Below, piece by piece: positions 3,122 to 17,663 of a DNA stretch of 64,000 nt. The notes under the pieces are model-generated. The model was given only the letters and a program-made list of their open reading frames with translations. It was not told the DNA's origin and made no database searches. How positions within the stretch are numbered: position 1 is the first letter of the stretch; each line of letters begins with the position of its first letter. A program made the position numbers and the translations under genes. This DNA comes from an uncultured Gammaproteobacteria bacterium (GTDB lineage Bacteria > Patescibacteriota > Microgenomatia > UBA10105 > UBA927), in assembly GCA_964449585.1 (NCBI GenBank), contig CAYUZE010000005.1, positions 46,596 through 110,595 of the forward strand, read 5' to 3'.

Positions 3122-4366
3122 TTACTTTGTAACCCACTTCTCCAGCGCCCGTTGCAGTTCGGGGCTGTCTTTGGCTTCAGATAGGGGAATGCCGTTAAGT
3201 GCCGCATTGAGTGACTGAATGATCGCCCGCGCCCCTGCGGGAGTGCCGTCGGGATGTCCGTGGATGCCGCCGCCGAAGTTCATCAGTAAATCTTTGCCAA
3301 GGATCGACACAAGGTCGGGGATATGTCCGGGGTGCAGTCCGCCCGAGGCGGTAGGGAGGGTCGTTTTTAGCCCGTACCATTCACTGCGGAGAAAATTATT
3401 GATCGTCACCACTTCTTCGCGGCCTCCTTCCATTTTGCCGACCACGGTTCCGGTGTGGAACGAGTCGATACCCGCAAGCCGCGCGAGTTTGGCGATGACG
3501 AGCATCGAGATACCGAAAATTTTAGATCGGGTAAATGCCGCATGCATCGCGCGGTGCCCGTGGATCATCAGTCCGTAGTTGCGGTTTCGTATCCCTTGGG
3601 TCGCGGCAAAGCCCGCGGTCAGTACATCGATCATCAGGCAGTTCGCGCCGCTATCGCGCACGTAGTTTGCGCGTTTCATCATTTCTTCGTAACTGGCCGT
3701 GATATTGAATGCATGGATTTTGGCATTGCCGATTTCAAGGTAATGCTTTTCCTTCATCCTGCGGGTGACTTCATCCACCCGGGTATAGAAATTATCAAAT
3801 GTCATGTTGGCAAGGTTTTCGTCATCTTTGACGAGGTTGACGCCCCCGTCCCATACCTCCATACACGCTTCGGCGTGGCGGACACTGGTAAGCCCCAGTT
3901 TGGGTTTGATGATAGAACCGGTGAGCGGACTGTCTTTCACCCCCGTGAGGTTGCGGATGCCGTCAATGCCGAGTGCGGGACCGGGGAATGATTTGACGAA
4001 TACCTCGGGAAATTCCAAGTCCTCAAGTCGGAGTCCCACGATTTCCTTGAGTCCGAACACGTTGCCCGTGATAGAAGAGAGGAGTTGGGGGATACTTCCC
4101 GCCTCAAACAAATCCAGTGGATACGCAACGACAATTCTCCCCGTAGTTTCATCCATGTCGATGACTTTGGCATGTAACTTATCCCAGATTGCTTTTTCCT
4201 CGAGCCCGATGTCCGTCCACGTGCCGACGGAGGATTCCGCCGCCACACCTCCTGCGGTCTTATCAAACGGTTCACCTTCCACTTTGAGGGTAAAGGTAGC
4301 CAAAATATGCTTGGTCTTGTCGACTTTTTCGTTGAGTGCCAGATAATGGATGTACCGATTTGCCAT
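3122..4366 (-). CDS. rbcL: Ribulose-1,5-bisphosphate carboxylase large subunit, form III (II/III)-like
   Basis: 414 aa; motifs GGVNLVKDDENL (GGxDxxKDDE active-site loop), GLHPGHIP and catalytic Lys region; length and motifs fit the archaeal/CPR-type RuBisCO. Confidence 0.85.
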   Translation of the reverse strand: MANRYIHYLALNEKVDKTKHILATFTLKVEGEPFDKTAGGVAAESSVGTWTDIGLEEKAIWDKLHAKVIDMDETTGRIVVAYPLDLFEAGSIPQLLSSITGNVFGLKEIVGLRLEDLEFPEVFVKSFPGPALGIDGIRNLTGVKDSPLTGSIIKPKLGLTSVRHAEACMEVWDGGVNLVKDDENLANMTFDNFYTRVDEVTRRMKEKHYLEIGNAKIHAFNITASYEEMMKRANYVRDSGANCLMIDVLTAGFAATQGIRNRNYGLMIHGHRAMHAAFTRSKIFGISMLVIAKLARLAGIDSFHTGTVVGKMEGGREEVVTINNFLRSEWYGLKTTLPTASGGLHPGHIPDLVSILGKDLLMNFGGGIHGHPDGTPAGARAIIQSLNAALNGIPLSEAKDSPELQRALEKWVTK

Positions 4367-4373
4367 AGAAATA

Positions 4374-5267
4374 TTATAGAGAGATAAACGGATAATTCAT
4401 ACGGGCGGTTTCGACAATTTGTTCCCCGCGAAGCAATCCCGCTTCGGTAATGATCGTGATGTCTTTATCATACGGCGTAAAGTCAAAGGCGGGGGCAAAG
4501 ATCGAAAGCTTTTCGGGCGCATCGTTCCATATTTCCGACGGATTGCGGGTTTCGATAAGCGACTGGTCAAACGGGCGAGGATCATATTTTAACAACGTGG
4601 AGAAGCAATACACGGGAATATTTCGCGCCCGTGCCGCAAGTACGATGGCAAGACTGCCGATTTTGTTGACAAACCCCGTGTCGGTCAGTAAATCCGCCCC
4701 GATAAATACCGCCGAAATATTCCGCTTCGGATCGGCAAGCACCGAGGCAGCGGCGCTATCGACGATCAGTGTCACGGGATCGATACCCCCGTTTATGAGT
4801 TCCCGCACCGTGAGTCTTCCTTGAAACAGAGGGCGCGTTTCGGTGGCGATAACCGAAAGTTTTTTGCCTTCCCCATGTGCCGCCAGAAACGCGTTGGTGA
4901 CCGTTGATGCGTGGCAATGGGTCAGGTAGGCGGCGCCGTCCCGCATGAGTTTGGCGCCGTGCTCAGCGATTTTGTGCTTTGCATCCTTTATATAGGTCGT
5001 ATAAGTGGCGATTTTTCCCAATAGTGCCGCGGCATGTTTGGGCGAGTCGGCAAACATACTCCGTACCGCATTTTGTGCCAGCGGCTCGGTAGGGCGCGCG
5101 TATGCCAGTGCATCGGCCATCTCTTTTAGCGTCGTTACGGGTGTTTCGGGGGCATTGCGTACCGTGAGGGTAAGGGTATCAAGCATGGCGAGCGCAACGT
5201 TGGTGGCACCCTGAATGTTTAAGGCTTTGATATCCGAAACCACCTGTTTGTAGGGCAGCATATACAC
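4374..5267 (-). CDS. Ribose-1,5-bisphosphate isomerase (eIF-2B alpha/beta/delta-like family, E2b2)
   Basis: eIF-2B-like fold motifs (THCHASTV, IATETRPLFQGRLTVRELI, VFIGADLL); directly upstream of, and co-directional with, RuBisCO as in the AMP/nucleoside salvage pathway. Confidence 0.7.
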   Translation of the reverse strand: MYMLPYKQVVSDIKALNIQGATNVALAMLDTLTLTVRNAPETPVTTLKEMADALAYARPTEPLAQNAVRSMFADSPKHAAALLGKIATYTTYIKDAKHKIAEHGAKLMRDGAAYLTHCHASTVTNAFLAAHGEGKKLSVIATETRPLFQGRLTVRELINGGIDPVTLIVDSAAASVLADPKRNISAVFIGADLLTDTGFVNKIGSLAIVLAARARNIPVYCFSTLLKYDPRPFDQSLIETRNPSEIWNDAPEKLSIFAPAFDFTPYDKDITIITEAGLLRGEQIVETARMNYPFISL

Positions 5268-5304
5268 CCATTGTAGGAAGAAAATTACGCCAAGACAATA
5301 CGCG

Positions 5305-5625
5305 TTACCTGGTGCGGGTGAGGTGGATCACGGTACCCGTTTCCGCGTCGGTCAGCGTACCGGTAGCATCATTAGCGGGCAAATTTGCGATATCGATAGG
5401 TGTTCCTACCTGTTCAAATTTCAAATACACCCGTCCGGCGCCCTTCGCCCCCTCACTGATCATGTGGGAAGGAGCCCAAAGTATCTTCCGCCAGATCCCC
5501 GGTTGTATTTGGAGTCGGGCGGACATAATTCCCCCCGATTCCTTGGGGTCGGGGATGGTAAATTCATCGCGTTCATCGGGTAGCCGCTCTATGTAGCCTT
5601 TGATTGTCATAACGGGATAAATCAC
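5305..5625 (-). CDS. Hypothetical protein
   Basis: 106-aa ORF downstream of the isomerase; no recognisable motif. Confidence 0.3.
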   Translation of the reverse strand: MIYPVMTIKGYIERLPDERDEFTIPDPKESGGIMSARLQIQPGIWRKILWAPSHMISEGAKGAGRVYLKFEQVGTPIDIANLPANDATGTLTDAETGTVIHLTRTR

Positions 5626-5700
5626 ACAAAAAAATCAGCCATTTTCAAGTTGTATGGCATGTACATTCCGCGCAAATGTGACGAGCATTATGATACGGTA

Positions 5701-5709
5701 TGATATACT
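5701..5709 (+). promoter_or_regulatory. Extended -10 promoter element TGATATACT, about 6 nt upstream of an ATG (likely leaderless or very short leader)
   Basis: TGnTATACT matches the extended -10 consensus TGnTATAAT at 8 of 9 positions; sits immediately before the start of the 5710 ORF (likely true ATG at 5716). Confidence 0.35.
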
Positions 5710-6045
5710 TTGGGTATGGTGAAAGAGAAACATGTCTATGCGTGCGCGGAAGGAAGGATTCGCGGTCGGGAACTGGCCGATCTGGCGAACGCGACGAAAG
5801 TAATTTCCGCCCGTTTCTTTCCCGGAGGTAAAAGAAGCCTGGTAGAGTTGGATAAGAGTGCGCTACAGGCGACAATAGCCGAGGATGAAATGGTGGTATT
5901 AATTACGGAACCGCAAACGAGTTGGCGGGAAGATTATGAGTTGTCCGAGCGGGCAAAAGTGTTGCTTGGGAACGCCGGCAGAAAGTGGCGAAGCGATACA
6001 CACGCCAATCTCATCGTCGAATTGGAGTTACGAATGCTTCAGTAG
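5710..6045 (+). CDS. Hypothetical protein (track start is TTG; likely ATG start at 5716)
   Basis: ORF only; no homology recognised. Confidence 0.3.
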   Translation: MGMVKEKHVYACAEGRIRGRELADLANATKVISARFFPGGKRSLVELDKSALQATIAEDEMVVLITEPQTSWREDYELSERAKVLLGNAGRKWRSDTHANLIVELELRMLQ

Positions 6046-6205
6046 CCACTTCGTACCATCCTTCCTGAATCCTCGGGTCGAATGCGCGGGATCGTGTTCC
6101 ACTTGCTGATTTATTTTCAAGATAGTACTTACCCAGAAAATAACCCACCCATTTTCACCATAACCGGAAGAAAAATAATACCGGCGTGTGAGGGGCTTGG
6201 GAATC

Positions 6206-6523
6206 TTATTCTTCCGGAAATTTGAGGACGCCGGTAATAAATAAATCAATGCTGTGAAGCAACTGAATCTGTGTTTCCCTTGCCCCCTTGAGGGGATTTT
6301 TTCCTCTATTTTCCTGACGTAGCTCGCGGATTTGCCGTTGATCCATGGAGAGCACCGTGGTAACAATTTCTTCAAATTCTGCTCTTGAATGACCCCAGGT
6401 ATCAGCCCATGCTATTTTCTCGGGAGTCAGGAAGTGTGTCTGTAGGCGATTACGGTTAGCCTGGATAAAACTCAGTTCTTCGTCCGGGCTAATTCGTCGC
6501 GGCATGCGGTGGGATTCATTCAT
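6206..6523 (-). CDS. Hypothetical protein
   Basis: 105-aa ORF; no recognisable motif. Confidence 0.3.
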   Translation of the reverse strand: MNESHRMPRRISPDEELSFIQANRNRLQTHFLTPEKIAWADTWGHSRAEFEEIVTTVLSMDQRQIRELRQENRGKNPLKGARETQIQLLHSIDLFITGVLKFPEE

Positions 6524-6591
6524 TTCACAAAAATTATAGCATTAATTGGGTATGCGGGTACGTCCTATGGGTGTGGATAGGTTGAACACAT

Positions 6592-6600
6592 GATACAATC
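6592..6600 (+). promoter_or_regulatory. Extended -10 element TGATACAAT, 5 nt upstream of the relict ychF start codon (original ychF promoter)
   Basis: TGnTACAAT followed by ATGAATCTGAAAGTAGG (the relict ychF 5' end). Confidence 0.4.
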
Positions 6601-6605
6601 TTGGC

Positions 6606-6622
6606 ATGAATCTGAAAGTAGG
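6606..6622 (+). repeat. attL-like direct repeat ATGAATCTGAAAGTAGG (relict ychF 5' end)
   Basis: 15 of 17 nt identical to ATGAACTTGAAAGTAGG at 12741-12757 (current ychF start); TTGG is also shared just upstream in both copies. Confidence 0.6.
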
Positions 6623-6784
6623 AACCCTTGTTACAATGCTCCAACTCTTAAATTAAGATTTTTACTTACAATCCCAGCTCCCAACAGAGGAAGAATAATC
6701 TCTAGTCGTAGTAATTTAGGAAGAATTATAAAAGCTCAGGTCCCAGACTTGACTGCTACGATTTAATGAACTAATCTACTGCTG

Positions 6785-6806
6785 CTGCCCGAAAGGGCCT
6801 TTTTTT
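6785..6806 (+). terminator. Candidate intrinsic terminator (GCCCGAAAGGGC hairpin followed by a T7 run)
   Basis: Perfect 4-bp GC stem with GAAA loop then TTTTTTT, immediately before the first element ORF. Confidence 0.35.
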
Positions 6807-7616
6807 ATGGCATACATCGCGAAAAATAAAGCAGTAATAATTCTGCTATTTATAATTCTTAGTCTCTCTGTTGCAGGATGGTACGCATCTAAGTTACCAC
6901 TTGAATCTACTTCAAAAGATTTTGCTATTACGGTCCTTAATGGTTTTTGGACCGCTTTATTTGCCTTTATTTTCTTAGGGCTTTCATCTATTGCATCAAA
7001 AGTGTTTGGTCGTGAACTAAAACACTATAACTCATTGGTAAATTTAGAGACGCAACTTAACGAAATGATTGGAGTTATTAAGGATAATATCTACGTAATG
7101 AAAGGTTATAAAACAGTTATCCTTAAAGGAAATATTCATTGGGGGAATTTAAGACCGATATTTATTGATAAATCTCATTATGAGAATTTACACGATATCA
7201 ATCTTATAAACAGAGTATTTTCATTCTTTTATCAGGTTAGAAAAATCAATGATGATATGGAAAATTTACAGGCTGGTTACAATGACCTAAAGAATGCATA
7301 TATACAAAAACAGATACGAGTTGAACAATATGTAGAAAATGCTCGAAGGATTTGCGAAGTCCTTGATGATTTGGAAGACTTTTCTGAAGAATTGTTCGAT
7401 GAGCTTTTATCCCTGTTAACCCGTGTTCAAATTCAAATTAGGAAGGAAAAACCACTCACCGCAATTATTAATGAAGCACTCATATATACAACAGGGGATA
7501 AGATTACATTGTCAGAATTTGAAACCGCAAAGAAAAGAATTAAATCGGAACTTGAAACATCGGCTAAAGAATCTGCCGAACAAATCGCCAAGATTCATAA
7601 AAGGAGAAAGAAATGA
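6807..7616 (+). CDS. Membrane-anchored coiled-coil protein (2 N-terminal TM helices; K-rich C-terminus)
   Basis: Hydrophobic segments at about aa 9-27 and 48-68, then a long predicted helical/coiled-coil region; AT-rich codon usage. Confidence 0.45.
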   Translation: MAYIAKNKAVIILLFIILSLSVAGWYASKLPLESTSKDFAITVLNGFWTALFAFIFLGLSSIASKVFGRELKHYNSLVNLETQLNEMIGVIKDNIYVMKGYKTVILKGNIHWGNLRPIFIDKSHYENLHDINLINRVFSFFYQVRKINDDMENLQAGYNDLKNAYIQKQIRVEQYVENARRICEVLDDLEDFSEELFDELLSLLTRVQIQIRKEKPLTAIINEALIYTTGDKITLSEFETAKKRIKSELETSAKESAEQIAKIHKRRKK

Positions 7617-7870
7617 AAAAATATATCTTTATGGTCATGCCGCCACAATTTAATACCTCAGCAGGAGTAGAAGTTGACGAGGTAGAAATTAAAACTCTTA
7701 CTGAAGAAGTTGAGATAATAAGAATCCGTATTATGGCTTCAGAAATTAAGGAAGCATTTGAAAAAGCGAAGCAGGAGTTGTCCCAAATTATTACAGTATC
7801 TTTTGGGCACATGAAGAACTTCGATTACTATGCTTTTAAACTTAGATTAATTGAAGTTGAAAATTTTTAG
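7613..7870 (+). CDS. Small hypothetical protein (85 aa), translationally coupled to upstream gene
   Basis: ATGA start/stop overlap with the upstream ORF at 7613-7616. Confidence 0.4.
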   Translation: MKKYIFMVMPPQFNTSAGVEVDEVEIKTLTEEVEIIRIRIMASEIKEAFEKAKQELSQIITVSFGHMKNFDYYAFKLRLIEVENF

Positions 7871-9186
7871 ACAACAAGCCAATTATGGCTTTCTAAATAG
7901 GCTTTTACGGTATCGGGGTGAGGATGTTCAAATCCAAAAATCCAAAATATTTCGTTTATCAAATTGATAAAGTAATCTTGAAATCGCTTCTTATCATTAA
8001 GTATCGAGGTGTCAAGCTCCAACGGATAATAGTAATGTTGCAATAATCCCATCTTGTCGTCATCAGGAAAAGTTTCTCTCCCTGTTAATACTGGTTTGAT
8101 ATAGATGTCTTCAGTGCTCTTTAATGAGAGACTACCTTTTATTCCACCTTGATACTCAAATAATTTATAAAAGTTTGTTGTAGCTTTCATTACAGCAAAA
8201 GTAAGGGAAATTAGATGCGAAATGTAGATAAATTTATATCCAGTTTCTAAATCCAAATTTAGAACATCTTTTGACAGGCGAACAAAACCCGATGAGTAAA
8301 TCTGTTCATTATGAATTCCTCCGTAATCCTCACGCCAAGAGAACGTCATAACCCCTTCTGGGATTGGTTCCATATTAACTGACGGAAAGTTAATGCGAAA
8401 AGTCCTATCACCATCTCGTATATCAGTTAGTCTTTCTTTTATATCTCGGGGCGTGACAATTGGCGTAGGATAGTAAGGTTGTAAAATCACACTAAAAATA
8501 GAAGCGTTGGACCCGAGTTCTTGTTGGAAAATTTTCGATTGAAATTCTGGTGGAGGTTGATGTTGCGTTAGCGCTTCTTGTCTTGCGCGTTTATAATTTG
8601 CTTTCTCAACTGCAATTTTCTTCTTGCGTTCTATTTCTCCTCTGTGTAAAGCAGCTTCATAGATTTCATTGGATTGTTGTATTTTGAGGTTTCTTAATAT
8701 TTCAGCATTTTCTTTTTTTCTTACGAGTAATTCAGTTGCCTCTGGTGATGCTAAATCAACAGAAGGCGTTATATTTCCTGTTCGGACATATATTTTGGGG
8801 TCATTTTGTACATAGTAGGGAGTTCTATCCCCTTCAAATACTCTTATTAAGATAAAATTTCTTCCATTTACTTCGTTTGTTGGATGCACTTCATACAACG
8901 GAAAGGGAGTTATATTGGAAGCCCACTGATGTATTCTTTCAACGTCTTGAGCATTAACAGGAATGCCAGTCCAAGCAGAGGGGACGCCAGTTGTTCTATT
9001 TTCCTCTACGCCAATAATGATTACGCCCCCTCTAGTATTTGAAAACGCGGCGATAAGTTTGGATAAACCATCCCGAGGCAATTCCTTCTTATAGTCAATT
9101 TGGAGACCTTCTCTTATTCCTTCTTGGCAAAAAGTCTCAATTTTAGCGAAGTCAAATGATTTGATGGGTTTATTGAGGATATCCAT
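7867..9186 (-). CDS. AlbA_2 (Schlafen-like, divergent-AAA/putative DNA-binding) domain protein with uncharacterised C-terminal domain
   Basis: N-terminal motif LSKLIAAFSNTRGGVIIIGVEEN matches the AlbA_2/PF04326 signature (AFANxxGGxIxIGVxD); aa 200-439 lack recognisable motifs. Confidence 0.55.
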   Translation of the reverse strand: MDILNKPIKSFDFAKIETFCQEGIREGLQIDYKKELPRDGLSKLIAAFSNTRGGVIIIGVEENRTTGVPSAWTGIPVNAQDVERIHQWASNITPFPLYEVHPTNEVNGRNFILIRVFEGDRTPYYVQNDPKIYVRTGNITPSVDLASPEATELLVRKKENAEILRNLKIQQSNEIYEAALHRGEIERKKKIAVEKANYKRARQEALTQHQPPPEFQSKIFQQELGSNASIFSVILQPYYPTPIVTPRDIKERLTDIRDGDRTFRINFPSVNMEPIPEGVMTFSWREDYGGIHNEQIYSSGFVRLSKDVLNLDLETGYKFIYISHLISLTFAVMKATTNFYKLFEYQGGIKGSLSLKSTEDIYIKPVLTGRETFPDDDKMGLLQHYYYPLELDTSILNDKKRFQDYFINLINEIFWIFGFEHPHPDTVKAYLESHNWLVV

Positions 9187-9221
9187 GTTATCTGGACGCT
9201 ATTATATACCCTTATTAAATT

Positions 9222-9500
9222 CTAATGAATGAAATAACTCAAAAGGTGTGTAATTATTGGGGCAATAAAGGCGGGTCCAATTATCAAGCCTAATACAAAG
9301 GCTAAGATTAAAAGCTTCCAATTAACAAATAAAAGCACTAGTCCCAGTAGTAAGCAAACAAAGGCATTTATATTTAAAATTGAGATAACAGAAGGACGAT
9401 TGAATAGAGTTGGTCTCTCCGTTACATTAAATTTCCCCCACTTATTTAAGGTAAAACCTCCAAAAGAAAGTAGAAATAGAATTCCCAAAAGATAGTCCAT
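9222..9500 (-). CDS. Small membrane protein (about 3 TM), first gene of the operon with the AlbA_2 protein
   Basis: 92 aa, highly hydrophobic; 35-nt gap to the downstream co-directional AlbA_2 gene. Confidence 0.45.
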   Translation of the reverse strand: MDYLLGILFLLSFGGFTLNKWGKFNVTERPTLFNRPSVISILNINAFVCLLLGLVLLFVNWKLLILAFVLGLIIGPAFIAPIITHLLSYFIH

Positions 9501-9531
9501 ATAAAGAATAAGCTTATTATGAGGCTAAATG

Positions 9532-9546
9532 CACCATCATATGGTG
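9532..9546. promoter_or_regulatory. Perfect palindrome CACCATcatATGGTG in the divergent promoter region (candidate XRE operator)
   Basis: 6-bp inverted arms with 3-bp spacer, 39 nt upstream of the XRE start and upstream of the divergent TM/AlbA_2 operon; adjacent inverted copy of the ATTTAGCCTCA motif at 9520-9530. Confidence 0.45.
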
Positions 9547-9584
9547 TAGATTAGAGGATACACCCAACATACCCTGTATGCAAC

Positions 9585-9800
9585 ATGGCAGGGTACAAAA
9601 TAAACCAGAAACTTGGACAACGAATCCAACGAGCGCGGAAGGGGAAGAAGATATCTCAAGAACAATTTGCCGAAGCTATCGGAGTCCATCGAAATCAAAT
9701 TGGTCGCATTGAGCGAGGGGAAACGAATGTCCCAATGTACACCTTTTATAAAATCGTCAAAGCCCTCAAATTAAAGGCTCGAGATTTACTTCCTTTTTAA
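9585..9800 (+). CDS. XRE-family helix-turn-helix transcriptional regulator
   Basis: 71 aa; LGQRIQRARKGKKISQEQFAEAIGVHRNQIGRIERGETNVPMYTFYKIVKAL is a canonical HTH_3 (Cro/C1) domain. Confidence 0.8.
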   Translation: MAGYKINQKLGQRIQRARKGKKISQEQFAEAIGVHRNQIGRIERGETNVPMYTFYKIVKALKLKARDLLPF

Positions 9801-9876
9801 TGAGTGCGGGAAGGTTTTATATCAAAATATATCAAAGTGATATTAGATATACCGAGGGGCAACCGGCGAATTTACC

Positions 9877-10266
9877 TTAAAGCATTGCTCTCATAAGCAT
9901 GCCTACGGAACGCACAAAGTCATCTAACTTCTCATAGTCTTTATTTACCACCTTCGTAATACCCCTATCTCGAAGTTGCTGATTGTAAGCAGGCATAGAG
10001 GATATTCCAATCACCTTATCTGTCCCAATTTTCTCTAGGTTAATTGTGTGAAAGGAGCCTCCCGCTTTGCAATCGCGGTCTAGGAGCACGATGTCCCAAG
10101 TAATTGATTCGGTTCTATTTACATAGTCTTCTACTTGGGAGTATTCGGAGAGGACGGTAGTAGCTATCTCCACATTACATTCATCCTCAAGAGTACGGAG
10201 AGCCTCCATAAGTTTCGAGAGCGTAGCTAAGTCATCTTCAAGGATAAGTACCCGACAGGTTTTCAT
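9877..10266 (-). CDS. Stand-alone response-regulator receiver (REC/CheY-like) domain protein
   Basis: N-terminal VLILEDD acidic pocket and central IVLLDRDC phospho-acceptor-like Asp in a 129-aa protein with no output domain. Confidence 0.5.
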   Translation of the reverse strand: MKTCRVLILEDDLATLSKLMEALRTLEDECNVEIATTVLSEYSQVEDYVNRTESITWDIVLLDRDCKAGGSFHTINLEKIGTDKVIGISSMPAYNQQLRDRGITKVVNKDYEKLDDFVRSVGMLMRAML

Positions 10267-10671
10267 ATGCCTAGATTGAAGTATAAACGATTCTTAATAG
10301 ATGGGGGGCTGGACAGGAAAACTATACACATTGATAGCCCGATGAAATGAGTAACCGCGTGCCTTGGTTTGTAAAAATTATAAGGTATTTGAAAAGTGAC
10401 ACATTTCAACTATAGAGCGTCCTGATGCACTAAATACCAGTTGACAGGGTGACAATAGAAATTATTCAATGGGCTTGTCTTAAGGGACTACCGTTAGGGC
10501 TTAGAAGACGTTAAAGAAACGAAGCGATAACGGCGACCGAAGCAAAGCAAACGAAACCTATACAGATAAACAGTTAAGACACCTCAGCCGCACCGGCTAG
10601 GAAAATCTGGCAGGGAGAGTGAAGCCAAGCGAGGGAGATGTATTTCTGAGTTATGGAGGGAGAAAAAAACG

Positions 10672-10863
10672 ATGAAAAAGTTACAAAGTGACACTGTAAG
10701 CACAAAACAGGTGCGAATTGACGCTGAGTGGGTAAATGCTCTGGCTTATCTCCGAGCAGACCTCCACGTGTCAATGAAGAGCCTTGTAGAGGAAGCTCTA
10801 AGCAAGTGCTATGCATTGAATTCAGAAGGGAAACCTTATCGAATTGAGAAAGCGTCAGATTAA
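10672..10863 (+). CDS. Small ribbon-helix-helix-like protein (possible CopG/antitoxin-like)
   Basis: 63 aa; VRIDAEWVNALAYL resembles an RHH beta-strand/helix start; weak. Confidence 0.3.
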   Translation: MKKLQSDTVSTKQVRIDAEWVNALAYLRADLHVSMKSLVEEALSKCYALNSEGKPYRIEKASD

Positions 10864-11140
10864 AGCTTGGTATCGAACATTTATCATTTCCATTTTCATT
10901 ATGAACATCAATAGCTATTTAACCGTCATAAGCGGAAGAACCAAATTGACCCTGTATGAATTCGATACGTATAAAAAAACGACGCAGTCCGACGATTGTA
11001 TTTCGCTATATGGTGGATGCGGGTGGAGCCACGCCTATCAAACGGATGTATAGCCGTATATTTGAGTTAGCGTATGAGCGAGTTATAGAGCGTAGGAATA
11101 AGATAAGTACTTAACAAAGTATAATGGAATAAGGGAAAAT

Positions 11141-12799
11141 ATGGGTGAACCATTCCAACCAACTAGTAGTGATAAAGTTCCACGAAAAGCAGCAATATAC
11201 GCTCGTGTTTCTACTGAAAATCAGGAGAAGCAACAAACAATAGACTCTCAGATTGATGAGGTCAAAAGGCGAATAGAGGTAGATGGAAACACCTTGACCG
11301 AGGAGAATATCTATATTGATGAAGGCTGGTCAGGGATGCTTTTGGCAAGACCTGCGTTAGACCAGTTACGTGATGCCGTTTCATCTAAGCGGTTCGATAT
11401 GGTGTACGTATATGACCTCGGGAGGCTATCGAGAGATTTTACCAACCAGCTTGTATTAATTAAGGAGATTGAAGATTCGGGGGTAAAGGTTGTTTCTTTG
11501 CATGACATTAACCCAGAAAACGATGAGCAAGGGTTTATAAGAAATATCTTGGGTAGCTTCCATGAGTATGAAAGAGTCAAAATCGCCGACCGCATGCGCA
11601 GAGGCAAACTTTATAAAGCAAGAAATGGCAACATTATCAACGGAAATGCGATTTATGGCTACTCGTATATTAAGAAAAGCGGCGATATACCCGCATCATG
11701 GGTAATAAACGAGCAAGAGGCAAAAGTCGTAAGGATGATATGGCAATGGGTAGGGGAGGAAGGAGAGTCAATTCGGGGTGTTATAAAAAGGCTTTACGAT
11801 ATGGGTATTACTCCTCGCAAACAAAAACGTCCCATTTGGACAAAGGGACCAATTGTACGAATACTCCAATGTAATACATATGTGACCGGCAAAGCCCATT
11901 ACAACAAGTCAGAAGCTACTATCGCAAAACGTCCTAGGAACAGCGACCGATACAAAAAGGTTAAGAGAACGAGTAGAAAAGTGCGACCGGTAGAAGAATG
12001 GATACCATTCGACGTTCCGATAATCATTCAGGATTTGGCGTTATATGAAAAAGTACAGAAAATATTCGAGCTTAACAAGAAATATGCAAATAAGAAAAGT
12101 AAGGGAAAGTATTTATTTACGGGAAGGATATTTTGCCAATGCGGAAGCCGTATGAACGGTGACGGGTGCAATAAATATGGTCACTTCTACTACCGGTGTA
12201 CGAGTAGAATCCACAAATTTCCTCTAGATACGTCTTGTAAGGCTGGTGGTGTGAATGCGAAGCTATTGGATACGTTGCTTTGGAATGCTCTTAAGAAACA
12301 AATTAGCGATAGCGTGCTTCTCCGGCAATATGCGGAGGAATGGCTTGAATCAAAGCAAAAGCATCTCGATATCTCAGAGGAGGTTGAGAGATTGCAAAGC
12401 ACGCTTAACAGCCTTTCTCAGGAAGAAGAGAGATATGCAAAGGCATATGGGGCAGGTTCACTAGATTTAAGTTTATTCACTAACCTTATTAAAAATATAC
12501 GAAGCCAAAAGACCGATGTTCAGGAAAAGATGTGTGGCATCATGGCTACCCATACGAGCGACATATCTCCAGTGGAAGTTGATGAGCTCGTAAAAGAATC
12601 GTTGGAAGTAATTGAAAAGTTAGATTGGGATAACAAAATTGCCACAGTTCGCGATATAATAGAGCGCGTTATTGTCAGAGAACAAACTGGAGTAGAGGTG
12701 TTCGTACATTTACCTATGCCATCTACCCAAAAGTTGGATTATGAACTTGAAAGTAGGCATCGTCGGGCTTCCCAATGCAGGGAAATCCACCTTATTTAA
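11141..12799 (+). CDS. Large serine recombinase (resolvase N-terminal domain plus recombinase domain plus Zn-ribbon/coiled-coil)
   Basis: AIYARVSTENQ catalytic Ser motif, then YDLGRLSRDF; Cys cluster CQCGSRMNGDGC...YYRC typical of large serine integrases; 552 aa. Confidence 0.85.
   Translation: MGEPFQPTSSDKVPRKAAIYARVSTENQEKQQTIDSQIDEVKRRIEVDGNTLTEENIYIDEGWSGMLLARPALDQLRDAVSSKRFDMVYVYDLGRLSRDFTNQLVLIKEIEDSGVKVVSLHDINPENDEQGFIRNILGSFHEYERVKIADRMRRGKLYKARNGNIINGNAIYGYSYIKKSGDIPASWVINEQEAKVVRMIWQWVGEEGESIRGVIKRLYDMGITPRKQKRPIWTKGPIVRILQCNTYVTGKAHYNKSEATIAKRPRNSDRYKKVKRTSRKVRPVEEWIPFDVPIIIQDLALYEKVQKIFELNKKYANKKSKGKYLFTGRIFCQCGSRMNGDGCNKYGHFYYRCTSRIHKFPLDTSCKAGGVNAKLLDTLLWNALKKQISDSVLLRQYAEEWLESKQKHLDISEEVERLQSTLNSLSQEEERYAKAYGAGSLDLSLFTNLIKNIRSQKTDVQEKMCGIMATHTSDISPVEVDELVKESLEVIEKLDWDNKIATVRDIIERVIVREQTGVEVFVHLPMPSTQKLDYELESRHRRASQCREIHLI
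12741..12757 (+). repeat. attR-like direct repeat ATGAACTTGAAAGTAGG (current ychF start)
   Basis: Partner of the 6606-6622 repeat. Confidence 0.6.
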
Positions 12800-13817
12800 C
12801 GCGCTATTGAAAAAACAGGTGGCGTTTGCCGCAAACTACCCGTTTGCTACCATTGAGCCAAACATCGGGGTCGTGCCCGTACCTGATGAACGGTTGGCAA
12901 AAATTGCCGAAATCACTAAAGAAGAAGATCACCTGGAAAAACTGCCGCCGCTCCGTCCCGCCACCGTGGAGTTTGTTGACATCGCTGGACTGGTGAAGGG
13001 CGCAAGTGAAGGCGAAGGATTGGGAAACAAATTTTTAGCCCACATTCGTGAGGTGAATATTATCTGTAACGTCCTCCGGTTTTTTCCCGACTCGAACATT
13101 GTCCATACCGAAGGGGGAATAGATGCCGAGCGTGACCGTACCATCGTCGAAACGGAGCTCGTGCTCGCCGACCTGCAAACACTTGCCAAACAGCAGGAGC
13201 CCAAAATGAATGCAACGAAGGAAGATCGGGCGCGGTATGAACTCGTTAAACGACTTAAAACCGCCATGGATGCGGGCAAGCGCGCGGGAGAAATCCTTAC
13301 CGATCCCGACGAACGGGAGCTTATCCGCCCGCTCCAACTCTTAACAATGAAGCCGATCGTCTACGTGGGCAACGTCTCCGAATCACAGCTTGCCGTTCCG
13401 CCGCAAACGAATCTTCATCCGATGGTGTTTATATCCGCGCAAACCGAATCTGAACTTGCCGCCATGACGCCCGAGGAACAAAAAGATTATCTTGCATCGC
13501 TCGGAGTTGCCGCGTCGGGACTTGATCTGCTAATCCGCACCGCATACGAAACACTGGGACTTATATCTTTTCTCACGACGGGAGAACTGGAAAGTCGTGC
13601 CTGGACGATCGAAAAGGGCATGAAGGCACCGGCAGCCGCCGGGGTGATTCACACGGATTTCGAAAAGAAGTTTATTAAAGCGGATACCGTGTCGTATGCC
13701 GACTTTGTTGCCTGCGGCGGTTGGAAAAAGGCACGGGAAGCCGGAAAAGCCCGCAGTGAGGGTAAAGAGTACGAGATGCAGGACGGTGACATCGTGGAGT
13801 TTAAAATCGGCAGTTAA
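12741..13817 (+). CDS. ychF: Ribosome-binding ATPase YchF (Obg-like GTPase family)
   Basis: MNLKVGIVGLPNAGKSTLFNAL G1 motif, TGS C-terminal domain; 358 aa. Confidence 0.9.
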   Translation: MNLKVGIVGLPNAGKSTLFNALLKKQVAFAANYPFATIEPNIGVVPVPDERLAKIAEITKEEDHLEKLPPLRPATVEFVDIAGLVKGASEGEGLGNKFLAHIREVNIICNVLRFFPDSNIVHTEGGIDAERDRTIVETELVLADLQTLAKQQEPKMNATKEDRARYELVKRLKTAMDAGKRAGEILTDPDERELIRPLQLLTMKPIVYVGNVSESQLAVPPQTNLHPMVFISAQTESELAAMTPEEQKDYLASLGVAASGLDLLIRTAYETLGLISFLTTGELESRAWTIEKGMKAPAAAGVIHTDFEKKFIKADTVSYADFVACGGWKKAREAGKARSEGKEYEMQDGDIVEFKIGS

Positions 13818-14101
13818 TGTAGACTCATATGACATTTCGCATTGAACGGTTCCCTGACTGTTACTATACCGGTCGTGAAAGGCTATATAAGGCCGGGGAG
13901 GAATTGAAGGTGCGGGTGAGTGCAATGGGTGGCCTTTCCACAAGGGAAGCAACGCTCGAGAGCTTAGCATCCGGCAAAGGGTTCATCGTCGGAGACAGAG
14001 TTATTCGACCGCCAAATTTTATCTGGACGAATTTCGGGTATGCCATTGCAGAATAAAACCCTCATTGAAGATTACGTTCCAATTTGCTATCATTATTGCT
14101 T

Positions 14102-14380
14102 ATGACTACGTACGAACTCATGGTTGTGGTAAATAGCGCCGTCGATTTGACGGGCGATAAAGCGCAAAAAGATTTGGTGGAAAAACTTGTCGGTGCAGGC
14201 GGCACGGTGACGGAAGTGACCTCGCTGGGCAAGAAAACGCTTGCGTATCCGATCAAAAAACAAACGGAAGCAACCTATCTTCTCGCGACAGTAACGGGAT
14301 CAGTGAAATCAGCGGAAATCGACAAGAAATCCAAACTCATGGATGAAGTCTTGCGATTTTTGTTGACGGTAAAAGAGTAA
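14102..14380 (+). CDS. rpsF: 30S ribosomal protein S6
   Basis: YELMVVVN...LAYPIKKQTEATYLL matches S6; conserved rpsF-ssb-rpsR order. Confidence 0.8.
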   Translation: MTTYELMVVVNSAVDLTGDKAQKDLVEKLVGAGGTVTEVTSLGKKTLAYPIKKQTEATYLLATVTGSVKSAEIDKKSKLMDEVLRFLLTVKE

Positions 14381-14400
14381 CGGAAGAGAAAGGGGTATCT

Positions 14401-14889
14401 ATGTCCAGCAGAAGTTTGAACAAGGTAACGCTCATCGGAAACCTTACGAGGGATCCTGAGCTTCGATATACACCGACGGGTGCCGCCGTGTGTACCATCG
14501 GTCTTGCGACCAACAGGACATGGGTAACTGATGCGGGGGAAAAGAAAGAAGAAACCGAATTTCACCGCGTCGTTGCTTGGAATAAGCTTGCCGAACTTTG
14601 CAGTCAGCTGCTCTCCAAAGGCCGCAAAGTCTATGTAGAGGGAAGACTTCGGACTTCCGCCTGGCAGGCACAAGACGGGTCACAGCGGACAAGTACGGAA
14701 ATCGTCATCGAAGACATGATCGTACTTGATTCAAAGCGACCGGGAGAAGAAACGGGAGAATCGCAGGATAAGCCGACAGCAGCACCCGTAGCACCGAAGA
14801 AGAAAGTCGAGAAAAAAGAAGCAAAAGAGGAAGCTCCTTCAGCGCCGTCGGCGGCAGAAGAAGTGAATCCTGACGATATACCGTTTTAA
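14401..14889 (+). CDS. ssb: Single-stranded DNA-binding protein
   Basis: OB-fold motifs (NKVTLIGNLTRDPELRYTP, HRVVAWNKLAE) and acidic C-terminal tail ending DDIPF. Confidence 0.9.
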   Translation: MSSRSLNKVTLIGNLTRDPELRYTPTGAAVCTIGLATNRTWVTDAGEKKEETEFHRVVAWNKLAELCSQLLSKGRKVYVEGRLRTSAWQAQDGSQRTSTEIVIEDMIVLDSKRPGEETGESQDKPTAAPVAPKKKVEKKEAKEEAPSAPSAAEEVNPDDIPF

Positions 14890-14920
14890 CAGATAAAATT
14901 GACAAAGTAACAAAAAACAT

Positions 14921-15166
14921 ATGATGAAACGATCTGGAAAATTTGTACGAAAACTGCGACCGGTTCCGACCAACTGTCCGTTTTGTGCGGCGGGTACGAG
15001 TCCTGATTACAAGGATGCGGCGGCACTTGGCAAATACCTTACCGAACGCGGCAAGCTTCAAGGACGCGCACGGACAGGGCTTTGTGCAAAGCATCAGCGA
15101 CGCGTCGAGCAGGCGATCAAGCGTGCACGGTTAGTCGCGATCTTACCGTTTGTGGTACGAGCCTGA
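14921..15166 (+). CDS. rpsR: 30S ribosomal protein S18
   Basis: CPFC...DYKD...LxxYLTERGKL..R..TGLCAKHQR motif. Confidence 0.85.
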   Translation: MMKRSGKFVRKLRPVPTNCPFCAAGTSPDYKDAAALGKYLTERGKLQGRARTGLCAKHQRRVEQAIKRARLVAILPFVVRA

Positions 15167-15176
15167 TAGATTTTCA

Positions 15177-16466
15177 ATGAAATCCCTGCCATTCTCAAAA
15201 ATACGATCCTTCGTTTTAATTCTCGCGCTCGTCATTCTCTCCGGAGGCGTGGGATATCAGCTGGGTGAGCGCAAAGTCTCCGTGGGATTTTCCGATAAAC
15301 GTCCCGTTATCAATACCGGTGCTCCCAACGGCACCAGCGTCAATTTCGGCGTGTTTTGGGATGTCTGGGGCAAACTTACCCGGTACTATATAGAACCGCA
15401 GACCATTGATGTGGAAAAGCTCGTTAATGGGGCGATAACGGGCATGGTGGCCGCCGTCGGCGACCCATACACTTCCTTCTTCCCCCCGCAGGAAAACAAG
15501 CAGTTTAAAGAAGATTTGGGAGGTGCGTTTGAAGGCATCGGTGCGGAGCTGGGACTGAAGGACGGTCGCGTCATTATTGTTTCGCCGCTCAAGGGTACCC
15601 CTGCGGAGGCCGCGGGAGTCAAACCTAACGATATTATCCTCAAGGTGAATGATGAAGAAACCGCAGGATGGACGGTAGAACAGGCGGTGAACAAAATTCG
15701 GGGACCGAAGGGAACCAAAGTAACACTCACGCTCCTTAGCCCTATTGATGCGTCGGGTCCGCGGGATGTCAGCATCGTACGCAACACAATCACCGTGCCT
15801 TCCGTTACTTCCTGGATCAAACCGGTACGTGAAATCACCGAAATTTCCGCTGCCACTGAAGCGGCACAACTTAAATCCCGCTCCTCGGATGACCGTGTTG
15901 CTTACATCAAGCTGACCCGATTCGGGGACAACACCAATGCCGATTGGAACAAAGCCGTGGATGCGATTCTTGCCGCAGACAAAGCCAACAAACTCGGCGG
16001 TCTGATTTTGGACCTGCGAAACAATCCGGGAGGCTATCTGGACGGCGCGGTGTACATCGCCAGCGAATTTATGAAAGGCGGCACCGTGGTATCACAGGTT
16101 AACAGTGATGGAACCCGACAGGATTACCCGACGGATCGAAGGGGAAGATTGACCGGCATGTCGATTGTCGTACTGGTCAATAACGGTTCCGCATCGGCAT
16201 CGGAAATTGTTGCCGGAGCACTTCGGGACAGTAAGCGGGCAAAGCTGGTCGGACAAACGACATTCGGCAAAGGCACCGTGCAAACGCCGTTTGATCTTTC
16301 GGGCGGCTCAAGCGTGCATATCACGACCGGCAAGTGGTTGTTGCCCGGCGGCAGTTCAATCAGTCAAAAAGGGCTTACGCCTGATCTTACGGTTGCGCTT
16401 GATCCTGCAGTGTCCGCGACCGCGGATGCGCAACTTGCCCGTGCGATTGAACTCCTTCTTCAGTAA
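15177..16466 (+). CDS. ctpA: Carboxyl-terminal processing protease (S41 family, CtpA/Prc-like) with PDZ domain
   Basis: PDZ (GIGAELGL...GTPAEAAGVKPNDIILKVN) plus S41 catalytic region (LDLRNNPGGYL, GSASASEIVAGAL); start chosen at MKSLPF to avoid overlap with rpsR. Confidence 0.8.
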   Translation: MKSLPFSKIRSFVLILALVILSGGVGYQLGERKVSVGFSDKRPVINTGAPNGTSVNFGVFWDVWGKLTRYYIEPQTIDVEKLVNGAITGMVAAVGDPYTSFFPPQENKQFKEDLGGAFEGIGAELGLKDGRVIIVSPLKGTPAEAAGVKPNDIILKVNDEETAGWTVEQAVNKIRGPKGTKVTLTLLSPIDASGPRDVSIVRNTITVPSVTSWIKPVREITEISAATEAAQLKSRSSDDRVAYIKLTRFGDNTNADWNKAVDAILAADKANKLGGLILDLRNNPGGYLDGAVYIASEFMKGGTVVSQVNSDGTRQDYPTDRRGRLTGMSIVVLVNNGSASASEIVAGALRDSKRAKLVGQTTFGKGTVQTPFDLSGGSSVHITTGKWLLPGGSSISQKGLTPDLTVALDPAVSATADAQLARAIELLLQ

Positions 16467-16511
16467 TTTTTCGGTTTTGCGATGTATGGTTTGTTGTGTA
16501 TACTAAGTGGT

Positions 16512-17663
16512 ATGAAACAGCAAAAAATACTTCTTCTGAGTGCTCTTTTCCTGTTGATTACGGGCGGCATCGTATCGGCCGGTTTTTTGGGACTGAATTG
16601 GCAACAGGTAAACAAGGTGTTTAAATTACCGTTGGGAACCAGCGCTCCATCACAAACCTTTTCCGATCGCATAAAAGTGGTAGAGGAAGAAAATGTTATT
16701 ACCGATGTGGTGGAGCGAGTTTCACCCTCTGTCGTTACGGTAGGTATATCACAGACAAGAGCGGTAGGGGATATTTTCGATTTTAATCCCTTTGACCCAT
16801 CGGAAACTGCGCCCCGCAGGCGCACGATCGAACAGGATATCGGCAGCGGCTTTGTGATCTCTTCTGACGGGCTTATTGTGACCAACAAACACGTGGTGAG
16901 TATGAGTAATGCGAAATACCGCGTAATCACCAAAGACGACAAATCCTATGATGTGGTCAAAATCTATCGTGATCCCGATAACGATTTGGCTATCGTCAAA
17001 ATAAACGCTACGGGGCTAACCCCCCTAGAAATGGGCGACTCGGATAAACTGAAGGTGGGACAAATGGCGATTGCCATCGGTACCGCATTGGGTGAGTTTC
17101 GGAACACGGTAACGGTGGGCGTTATTTCTGGCGTGGGGCGCGGCATTACGGCGGGTGAGCCGTTTGGCGGCAGCGCGGAAAAACTTGATAACGTCATTCA
17201 AACCGATGCGGCAATCAATCCCGGTAACTCGGGAGGACCGCTCCTTAACTCTGCAGGTCAGGTAATAGGCGTCAACACCGCCGTTTCCGCCGAGGGGCAG
17301 GGCATCGGATTTGCGCTTCCCATTAATGTCGTTAAGGATGCAGTGGCGAACTTCAATACCACGGGACAATTTAACCGTCCGTTTATGGGAGTTGAGTACC
17401 GTATGGTGACGCGCCAAATCGCCGTATTAAACGAGATTCCCGAGGGGGCATACATCATGGCGATCGTATCGGGAAGCCCTGCTGATGACGCAAACATCGA
17501 AGAAGGGGATATCATTACCAAAATAGCGGGGGAAAAGGTCACGGAGAGTAATGATCTTGCCCGCATCATCGGCAAGAAAAAAGTAGGGGACAAACTCACC
17601 ATCACCGTATGGCGTAACGAAGAGGAAACGGATCTTACGCTTACCCTGGGAACGCAGGAATAA
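16512..17663 (+). CDS. htrA: HtrA/DegP-family trypsin-like serine protease with C-terminal PDZ
   Basis: Catalytic triad context (TNKHVV, DLAIVKI, NPGNSGGPLLN) and PDZ domain. Confidence 0.85.
   Translation: MKQQKILLLSALFLLITGGIVSAGFLGLNWQQVNKVFKLPLGTSAPSQTFSDRIKVVEEENVITDVVERVSPSVVTVGISQTRAVGDIFDFNPFDPSETAPRRRTIEQDIGSGFVISSDGLIVTNKHVVSMSNAKYRVITKDDKSYDVVKIYRDPDNDLAIVKINATGLTPLEMGDSDKLKVGQMAIAIGTALGEFRNTVTVGVISGVGRGITAGEPFGGSAEKLDNVIQTDAAINPGNSGGPLLNSAGQVIGVNTAVSAEGQGIGFALPINVVKDAVANFNTTGQFNRPFMGVEYRMVTRQIAVLNEIPEGAYIMAIVSGSPADDANIEEGDIITKIAGEKVTESNDLARIIGKKKVGDKLTITVWRNEEETDLTLTLGTQE

Follow-up and report, generated by a model that had tools for sequence, protein, structure and literature searches.

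Prokaryotic Schlafen (pSlfn) proteins protect bacteria against phages through trigger-dependent cleavage of tRNA, and were established as a defence family in publications of 2025-2026 (Perez Taboada et al., Nat Microbiol 2026; PMC13056530). The catalogue assembled in that study comprises 5,930 proteins with 55 fusion architectures, in which 'TBP-like' fusions account for 1.5%, and prokaryotic Schlafens are defined there by the motif Ex4(E/D)xK. Mutation of this motif in RorSlfn5 (E15A/D20A) abolished toxicity, and in pSlfn5 the nuclease was found to be conserved, with a more variable C-terminus (PMC13056530). The subject of the present analysis is a 439-aa Schlafen protein encoded in a 64,000-nucleotide stretch of contig CAYUZE010000005.1 (positions 46,596 to 110,595, hereafter the window). 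The protein is probably a single-polypeptide, pSlfn-type sensor-effector immune nuclease, carried as cargo by a large serine recombinase element that is inserted in the ychF gene.

A preliminary description of the window had recognized three open reading frames (ORFs) of 439, 92, and 71 aa, the last of them divergent from the other two, and these ORFs were recovered with the same coordinates and order. The 92-aa gene lies 35 nt upstream of the 439-aa gene on the same (minus) strand, and the 71-aa XRE gene is separated from this divergent operon by a spacer of 84 bp. The features of the module, in window positions, are as follows.

7867-9186, minus strand: pSlfn-family protein, 439 aa (PF04326, full-length family, AlphaFold2 model)
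8746-9186, minus strand: predicted Schlafen/AlbA_2 nuclease domain, residues 1-147
9088-9111, minus strand: predicted catalytic motif E26-x4-D31-x-K33 (EGLQIDYK)
8566-8745, minus strand: single basic helix of 60 residues, residues 148-207 (AlphaFold2 model, charge)
7870-8502, minus strand: C-terminal TBP-like-fold domain, residues 229-439, acidic, presumed sensor
9222-9500, minus strand: orphan membrane protein, 92 aa, hydrophobic segments two to three in number, encoded first in the operon
9530-9548: probable operator TGCACC-N7-GGTGTA, unique in the window, enclosing a palindrome at 9532-9546
9559-9564: third half-site TACACC, 10 nt from the operator, with the same arrangement in a related locus (L001)
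9585-9800, plus strand: predicted XRE-type helix-turn-helix (HTH) repressor, 71 aa (HTH_3, PADLOC, PHROGs)

The N-terminal AlbA_2/Schlafen domain proposed in the preliminary description was confirmed. Pfam assigned SLFN_AlbA_2 (PF04326) to residues 26-138 (E = 1.7e-14, 54.8 bits, cut-off 25.3), over model positions 1-112 of 118 and thus near the full length of the model, and the peptide AFSNTRGGVIIIGVEEN, which had been quoted for this domain, is present in the protein. In an alignment of 49 family members, E26, D/E31, K33, and E62 were each found in 49 of 49 sequences, and E26-GLQI-D31-Y-K33 makes up a complete Ex4(E/D)xK motif; the domain match and the invariant motif agree with the earlier prediction of a Schlafen-type protein that targets nucleic acids. 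E26 was taken as the first Glu of the motif because the start of the Pfam model falls on it; in the GmrSD-Schlafen protein that neighbours some relatives, the same model position falls on the first Glu of ETGAVEFK. A HMMER alignment to SLFN14 (PDB sequences) placed E26 on the second catalytic Glu, with a shift of five residues. This register was rejected, since Ex4DxK is favoured by the invariant residues, by a spacing that fits the motif exactly, and by the start of the Pfam model, and the shift was judged to be an artefact of a longer insertion in the eukaryotic proteins. PHROGs returned one weak 'DNA helicase' family match over the AlbA_2 region, and the NCBIfam scan of the 439-aa protein gave sub-threshold EF-Tu noise alone.

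The AlphaFold2 model, calculated from the 49-sequence alignment, reached a predicted local distance difference test (pLDDT) score of 91.3, and consists of an alpha/beta domain (residues 1-147), one helix (residues 148-207), and a second alpha/beta domain (residues 229-439). Structure prediction of the C-terminal part, which the preliminary description had recommended, gave a pLDDT of 93.3 when residues 229-439 were modelled alone, and in the structure model the C-terminal part is a helix followed by a probable TBP-like fold. The same description had named, as grounds for abandoning its proposal, a C-terminus of the HATPase and winged helix-turn-helix (wHTH) regulator type together with a missing link to the membrane partner. 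The regulator architecture was rejected, as Pfam gives PF04326 alone and the C-terminal fold differs; the link to a membrane partner is indeed absent. A search of the BFVD viral structure library yielded weak TBP matches for the C-terminal domain and one giant-virus AlbA_2 protein, and no phage homolog of the 439-aa protein was found there.

The two ends of the protein differ in conservation, with a mean family identity of 59% in the N-terminal domain versus 37% in the C-terminal domain. The conserved positions of the C-terminal domain are Gly, Pro, Gln, Tyr, and Thr, among them a surface of Q236, Q295, Y340, Y345, Q346, Y385, and T393, and the alignment contains no conserved cluster of Asp, Glu, His, Lys, or Cys residues in this domain. 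The domain is acidic (isoelectric point 5.35, net charge about -7), and the preceding helix is basic (isoelectric point 9.6). A variable, acidic domain that lacks residues of the catalytic type is as expected for a faster-evolving, non-enzymatic sensor fused to a conserved effector, and binding of bulk nucleic acid by this domain is probably not to be expected. An enzymatic C-terminal domain was considered and rejected, no acidic, basic, His, or Cys residues being conserved. In the model, the long helix is a possible coiled-coil or dimerisation stalk.

The 439-aa protein resembles the assayed pSlfn proteins RorSlfn5 and EcoSlfn7 (PMC13056530) in its N-terminal PF04326 domain, the Ex4(E/D)xK motif, the single polypeptide, and the fused, non-catalytic C-terminal domain, and both its family and the pSlfn proteins are located among defence genes and mobile elements. 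The sequence features by which pSlfn proteins are recognized were all found, namely a PF04326 match of more than 100 aa at E < 0.001, the motif, and fusion to an accessory domain. As to neighbourhood, restriction-modification (R-M) genes, GmrSD-Schlafen, Mrr_cat, and reverse transcriptase genes, and serine recombinases all lie near relatives of the gene. The preliminary description had been unable to match the locus to any named system, and on this point it has to be corrected, since the locus matches the pSlfn defence family (PMC13056530). There are also differences. RorSlfn5 carries an Ig-like domain and EcoSlfn7 a DUF262 domain, whereas the 439-aa protein carries a helix and a predicted TBP-like fold; the assayed pSlfn proteins come from Enterobacterales and the present one from Patescibacteria; and no dedicated repressor is described in the pSlfn work, whereas the 439-aa gene sits behind an XRE gene. 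At the level of the modelled fold, the architecture corresponds to the 'TBP-like' class of the catalogue (PMC13056530), and membership of that class is a candidate assignment.

Other Schlafen systems also invite comparison. A Schlafen protein of Enterococcus lactis, which has an unannotated C-terminus and is associated with a serine recombinase, was reported to provide broad abortive-infection defence (PMC13552941). The 439-aa protein shares both traits, but the marker in E. lactis is a small serine recombinase, whereas here it is the large integrase of an integrative element. CRISPR-associated Schlafen (Cash, PMC13462974) and SLFN-pAgo (bioRxiv 10.64898/2026.05.29.728809) likewise join a Schlafen effector to a dedicated sensor module. 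In Cash, however, the sensor is the cA4-binding domain Csx15, and in SLFN-pAgo it is an Argonaute/GHKL core, whereas the present locus contains no CRISPR or Argonaute genes; the sequence match between CbCash and the 439-aa protein is weak (E = 0.2). The mammalian tRNases SLFN11, 12, 13, and 14, and SAMD9/9L, possess two-lobed N-terminal domains with helicase or multi-domain sensors, and show 12-16% identity to the 439-aa protein. The AlbA_2-HATPase_c_4-wHTH 'RecG-like transcriptional regulator' (DIP2311, PDB 3lmm) carries HATPase and wHTH domains, both of which are missing from the 439-aa protein, and its C-terminal fold is a different one.

The 439-aa protein belongs to a full-length family. 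A search returned 200 proteins at E <= 0.001, and among the 120 matches listed, most align over 98-100% of the query, with 38-70% identity and lengths of 403-495 aa, and a few are truncated fragments; the conserved length of the family is about 420-445 aa. An exhaustive search, clustered at 50% identity, gave 106 clusters with E < 1e-30. Most named sources belong to the candidate phyla radiation (CPR), including Levybacteria, Daviesbacteria, Woesebacteria, Shapirobacteria, Moranbacteria, Saccharibacteria, and WWE3, and some members come from outside it (Omnitrophota, Chlamydiae, and Verrucomicrobia).

The placement of the module inside a mobile element, as asserted in the preliminary description, was substantiated by composition, a direct repeat, and an empty site. 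The GC content falls from about 0.51 outside to 0.29-0.46 between about 6600 and 12750, and the 10-bp repeat TGAAAGTAGG occurs at 6613-6622 and 12748-12757. In a contig from another sample that encodes an identical YchF (L153), the sequence corresponding to window positions 3629-6622 (100% identity) is joined to that of 12741-17219 (99.96%) with nothing between, the 100% identity ending exactly at 6622. By the repeat and the empty site, the module is part of an insertion of 6,135 bp, which a near-identical strain lacks. The remaining features of the element are as follows.

6623-12757: integrative element, 6,135 bp, low GC, in the 5' end of ychF (composition, repeat, empty site)
6613-6622: attL core, the left copy of TGAAAGTAGG, within the remnant ychF start ATGAATCTGAAAGTAGG (from 6606)
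12748-12757: attR core, the right copy of TGAAAGTAGG, within the live ychF start ATGAACTTGAAAGTAGG
11141-12799, plus strand: large serine recombinase, 552 aa, its 3' end overlapping the ychF start
12741-13817, plus strand: ychF, redox-regulated ATPase, the target gene (TIGR00092, E = 2.8e-115)
6807-7616, plus strand: cargo protein, 269 aa, membrane segment at the N-terminus, otherwise helical
7613-7870, plus strand: ORF, 85 aa, convergent with the Schlafen gene, no significant family in Pfam or PHROGs
9877-10266, minus strand: ORF, 129 aa
10956-11114, plus strand: ORF, 52 aa, directly upstream of the recombinase

The gene content of the element is thus a recombinase with two small ORFs upstream, the 129-aa ORF, the XRE/92-aa/Schlafen module, the 85-aa ORF, and the 269-aa protein. 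The recombinase matched Resolvase (E = 8.1e-32), Recombinase (5.9e-12), and Zn_ribbon_recom (2.1e-09) in Pfam and the integrase family phrog_95 in PHROGs (E = 1.2e-86). A related element occupies the same ychF site in L001, and the two recombinases are 62% identical. On integration, the element supplies the first codons of ychF anew, ATGAACTTGAAAGTAGG replacing ATGAATCTGAAAGTAGG (compare L153:2978-2994); since both encode MNLKVG, re-supplied by the element, YchF remains intact. Integration also leaves the promoter-like site that ychF had originally (TTGAAC-N17-TACAAT, about 6583-6599) at a distance from the gene. The 129-aa ORF, on the opposite strand, breaks the row of genes that runs from the XRE gene to the recombinase, and the genes of L001 differ at this place. 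Its N-terminus (VLILEDD...) is receiver-domain-like by eye, and Pfam, NCBIfam, PHROG, and PADLOC gave no significant family. The 52-aa ORF resembles, by eye, a 58-aa gene in the same position in L001, and is a possible directionality factor.

The 269-aa cargo protein matched no family in Pfam, NCBIfam, or PHROG, and gave a weak PADLOC match to PDC-S61 (E = 0.008). In L109, the second gene downstream of the Schlafen gene encodes a homolog (L109:3017-3817; blastp E = 8e-13), and through it the 269-aa protein shares a neighbour cluster with the 277-aa product of the gene that immediately follows the Schlafen homolog in L078 (L078:7313-8146); this protein could be a second recurrent neighbour of the family. 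In L001, the next gene after the Schlafen gene, on the same strand, encodes a 672-aa fusion of a Ser/Thr protein kinase (Pkinase) to an unannotated C-terminus (L001:9374-11392, plus strand), which is absent from the element of the window and may be further cargo of the defence type. An Rfam scan of the window detected a tRNA-Leu alone, and no RNA element in the module.

The GyrA of the host is 99% identical to that of a 'Patescibacteria group bacterium' and 91% identical to that of Candidatus Gottesmanbacteria, and by this marker sequence the host is a Gottesmanbacteria-like member of the Patescibacteria. Just upstream of the element (3122-5267, minus strand), a form III RuBisCO gene (TIGR03326, E = 5.4e-140) lies beside a ribose-1,5-bisphosphate isomerase-like gene. 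This combination, which looks like the pair of nucleotide-salvage genes familiar in archaea and CPR bacteria, fits the assignment by GyrA. Six contigs with family members (L006, L009, L012, L018, L025, and L026) are titled 'uncultured Gammaproteobacteria bacterium'. The first of these shares the ychF integration site with the window, with YchF 64% and the recombinase 62% identical; because it matches the Patescibacteria window in site, YchF, and recombinase, the 'Gammaproteobacteria' labels look unreliable.

The 71-aa protein was identified as HTH_3 by Pfam (E = 1.3e-14), is 84.5% identical to its counterpart in L001, and matches phage repressor families in PHROGs. It is also the sole protein of the module with a PADLOC match, to the regulator model Control_protein (E = 2.5e-13). 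The palindrome CACCATcatATGGTG, which the preliminary description had proposed as the operator, is exact and is the sole exact copy in 64 kb (9532-9546). Because five inverted repeats with arms of at least 6 nt share the 121 nt around it, such a 6+3+6 palindrome alone is weak evidence, and the site is better read as TRCACC-N7-GGTGYA (9530-9548) with a third half-site. The extended site is unique in the window (0.02 expected), and TRCACC half-sites number three per 84 bp in both the window element and L001, versus 0.72 per kb window-wide. The spacers of the two elements are highly conserved over about 85 nt, and that of L001 has the same layout of three half-sites (TACACC-N7-GGTGTA plus GGTGTA). 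Since the extended site is unique, the half-sites are dense, and the layout is kept in L001, the predicted operator is read as real, with TRCACC as its half-site. The earlier proposal of mobile-element cargo behind a divergent XRE gene with a plausible operator is upheld in this form. The start codon of the XRE gene (9585) is flanked by a perfect 7-nt inverted repeat, TACCCTG/CAGGGTA (9570-9576 and 9589-9595), which may form a hairpin there or serve as a further protein-binding site, and which is not conserved in L001.

The 71-aa protein resembles the controller (C) proteins of R-M systems in its Control_protein profile, the palindromic sites by its own promoter, and the potentially toxic nuclease gene nearby. 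However, C proteins are normally encoded upstream of, and co-oriented with, the endonuclease gene, whereas the 71-aa XRE gene is divergent and heads an operon that points toward the recombinase. A type II toxin-antitoxin pair was also considered and rejected, because the XRE gene is divergent and its product is a bare 71-aa HTH; its match to MqsA_antitoxin is below threshold (17 versus 30 bits).

The survey of neighbourhoods took in 26 non-redundant loci with 149 neighbour ORFs of 150 aa or more, the gene calling being crude (longest non-overlapping ORFs). Most frequent among these neighbours are six to seven large serine recombinases, six LexA_DNA_bind plus Peptidase_S24 repressors, four type IIG R-M genes, three type III methylases and three type III restriction subunits, three PADLOC candidates of PDC-S01, two GmrSD_N genes, and two reverse transcriptases. 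An Mrr_cat gene lies directly downstream of a family member in L019. In L012 and L022 (5717-7972 in each, plus strand), and also in L091, a 751-aa fusion of GmrSD_N (DUF262) and SLFN_AlbA_2 is encoded 28 nt upstream of the family member; this fusion has the same architecture as the experimentally validated EcoSlfn7. Loci of this type hold two different Schlafen genes in tandem beside a type III R-M system. Judged from these gene neighbourhoods, the family is cargo of small integrative elements and defence-island-like regions. In the window itself, PADLOC found no known defence gene adjacent to the module, and the sole context is the mobile element.

In at least 12 loci, the family member is preceded by a divergent repressor gene. 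This gene is of the XRE type in the window, L001, and L026, of the XRE type with an IrrE/ImmA-type M78 peptidase in L015 and L018, and of the LexA_DNA_bind plus Peptidase_S24 type in seven non-redundant loci. This recurrent association with repressors of the SOS or prophage type is a lead. A DUF2188 protein of 77-81 aa adjoins the Schlafen homolog in six non-redundant loci, upstream in five (L003:7765-7998, L019:7446-7679, L097, L117, and L123) and downstream in L090. Its gene is 2 nt from the Schlafen start in three of the five upstream cases, and most of these loci have a LexA-like S24 repressor divergently upstream. In L003 (2337-14430), two small serine-recombinase elements stand back to back, and both contain a DUF5659 gene; the cargo is a Schlafen homolog in one, and a DnaG-type Zn-ribbon primase-like gene with a 431-aa gene in the other, which suggests tiny integrative elements with swappable cargo in CPR-like genomes.

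The following mechanism is proposed. The XRE protein, bound to the three TRCACC half-sites, would repress both its own operon, which runs toward the recombinase, and the divergent 92-aa/Schlafen operon, and would thereby keep a potentially toxic nuclease at a low level. The nuclease would be kept inactive by the C-terminal TBP-like domain, for which a coiled-coil stalk may serve as a mount, until an infection cue is bound by this domain. A phage protein or a small ligand is the likeliest cue, and bulk nucleic acid a less likely one. Once activated, the Schlafen domain would cut tRNA or other RNA, halt translation, and limit phage yield, as in RorSlfn5.

Several points weigh against reading the 439-aa protein as an immune nuclease of this kind. 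Nuclease activity, the RNA target, the trigger, and phage protection are all attributed by homology, and both the repression by the XRE protein and its binding to TRCACC-N7-GGTGYA are predictions. The PADLOC search advised in the preliminary description gave no model for the 439-aa protein (PADLOC-DB v2.0.0, 2023), nor a family for the 92-aa protein. Of the catalogued pSlfn genes, 30% lie away from known defence genes and may have non-immune roles (PMC13056530). A consensus scan for promoters and terminators made no call in the divergent spacer, in particular no sigma-70-like promoter, which is uninformative for this phylum, as promoters of Patescibacteria may differ. Lastly, the LexA-like and XRE plus ImmA neighbours of relatives could mean that the protein acts when the element is induced rather than when a phage attacks.

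The chief alternative, which we hold to be unlikely, is that the protein is an induction-coupled weapon of the element or an addiction toxin. The nuclease would be made only once the repressor is inactivated, through DNA damage, induction of the element, or its loss, and the shutdown of host translation would favour the element, or kill cells that lose it or are co-infected. The recurrence of a divergent repressor among relatives is in keeping with this idea, as are the frequent location of the gene at the far end of small serine-recombinase elements, and the likeness of the XRE protein to R-M controller proteins, which time the expression of toxic enzymes. However, the window offers no visible route of induction, since its XRE protein has neither a peptidase domain nor an ImmA partner; many family members stand among R-M genes, away from any recognizable element and with no repressor gene beside them; and the variable C-terminal domain is more easily explained as a sensor in an arms race. 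The idea is compatible with a pSlfn-type immune nuclease, the main difference being what licenses activity.

The preliminary description had favoured a two-gene module of the abortive-infection type; in its obligate form, with the membrane protein serving for example as an anchor, a pore-forming co-effector, or an infection sensor, this model is now improbable. The two genes do share one strand and one divergent promoter region across their short gap, and an ORF of 92 aa would arise by chance in an AT-rich spacer with P of about 0.008 (5000 first-order resamples). Unrelated small hydrophobic ORFs stand in the same position in the two closest elements, the window and L001 (in the latter an ORF of 65 aa with two transmembrane (TM) segments), which is one hint of a partner, and a 62-aa ORF with two TM segments lies directly downstream of the Schlafen homolog in L014. 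Yet the 92-aa protein, whose sole Pfam match is sub-threshold, found only itself among 5.8 billion proteins, and showed no similarity to the ORFs of 152 loci (BLAST and phmmer) or, pairwise, to the 65-aa protein of L001, the length of which is weakly non-random (P of about 0.07).

The survey of pairing that the preliminary description had called for, made over 67 non-redundant family loci with their other ORFs as background, likewise revealed no conserved membrane partner. A membrane protein was the upstream same-strand neighbour in 14 of 44 cases (32%), versus 168 of 602 (28%) in the background (p = 0.60), and many family members have no small neighbour or a soluble one, the slot being empty or filled by a DUF2188 protein, a Zn-ribbon protein, or the 751-aa GmrSD_N-Schlafen fusion. 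The 92-aa protein is best regarded as a lineage-specific accessory or leader gene rather than a required partner, and a conserved small partner is more plausibly sought in the DUF2188 protein. Of the abortive-infection or toxin-like layout seen in the preliminary description, the placement of relatives among R-M genes and mobile elements holds, but the layout comprises neither a conserved TM partner nor a toxin-antitoxin pair.

Least probable is a non-catalytic protein whose AlbA_2 and TBP-like domains bind DNA, as an element regulator or a partition or replication factor: TBP and several TBP-like folds do bind DNA, the central helix is basic, relatives bear NCBI names such as 'ATP-binding protein' and 'RNA-binding domain-containing protein', and many AlbA_2 proteins are annotated 'transcriptional regulator', 'RNA-binding', or 'ATP-binding', but the catalytic-motif residues are all invariant, which would be unexpected for a mere binding domain, HATPase and wHTH domains are lacking, the C-terminal domain carries its net negative charge, the second element in L003, which is related to that of the window, has no Schlafen gene, and the family has no core element function, because it is also found outside elements next to R-M genes.

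With a pSlfn-type immune nuclease as the preferred reading, the locus reveals no new principle, as the pSlfn kind is already known. What is added here is the Patescibacteria setting, a candidate operator, a clean 6.1-kb element for which an empty site serves as control, and the recurrent association with repressors, which goes beyond what is discussed in the published pSlfn work. To our knowledge, immunity in Patescibacteria has been little explored. Only in 2025-2026 did bacterial Schlafens prove to be anti-phage tRNases, with no more than two fusion types assayed, both from Enterobacterales, and the locus provides a compact, cleanly bounded example of an architecture of nuclease, long helix, and TBP-like domain. 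It makes it possible to ask what the TBP-like sensor recognizes, whether Schlafen toxicity needs transcriptional gating, and how such genes spread by tiny serine-recombinase elements. A bolder and tentative proposal, which we regard as rather doubtful, is that a Patescibacteria-centred Schlafen subfamily is licensed twice, first by release from a dedicated repressor of the SOS or prophage type (XRE, XRE plus ImmA, or LexA-like S24), such repressors being found again and again beside the gene in genomic settings unrelated to one another, and then by a TBP-like sensor that has no solved relative. If this were true, the family would represent a damage- or induction-gated tRNase, and could be among the few widespread innate immune genes of CPR bacteria other than R-M systems.

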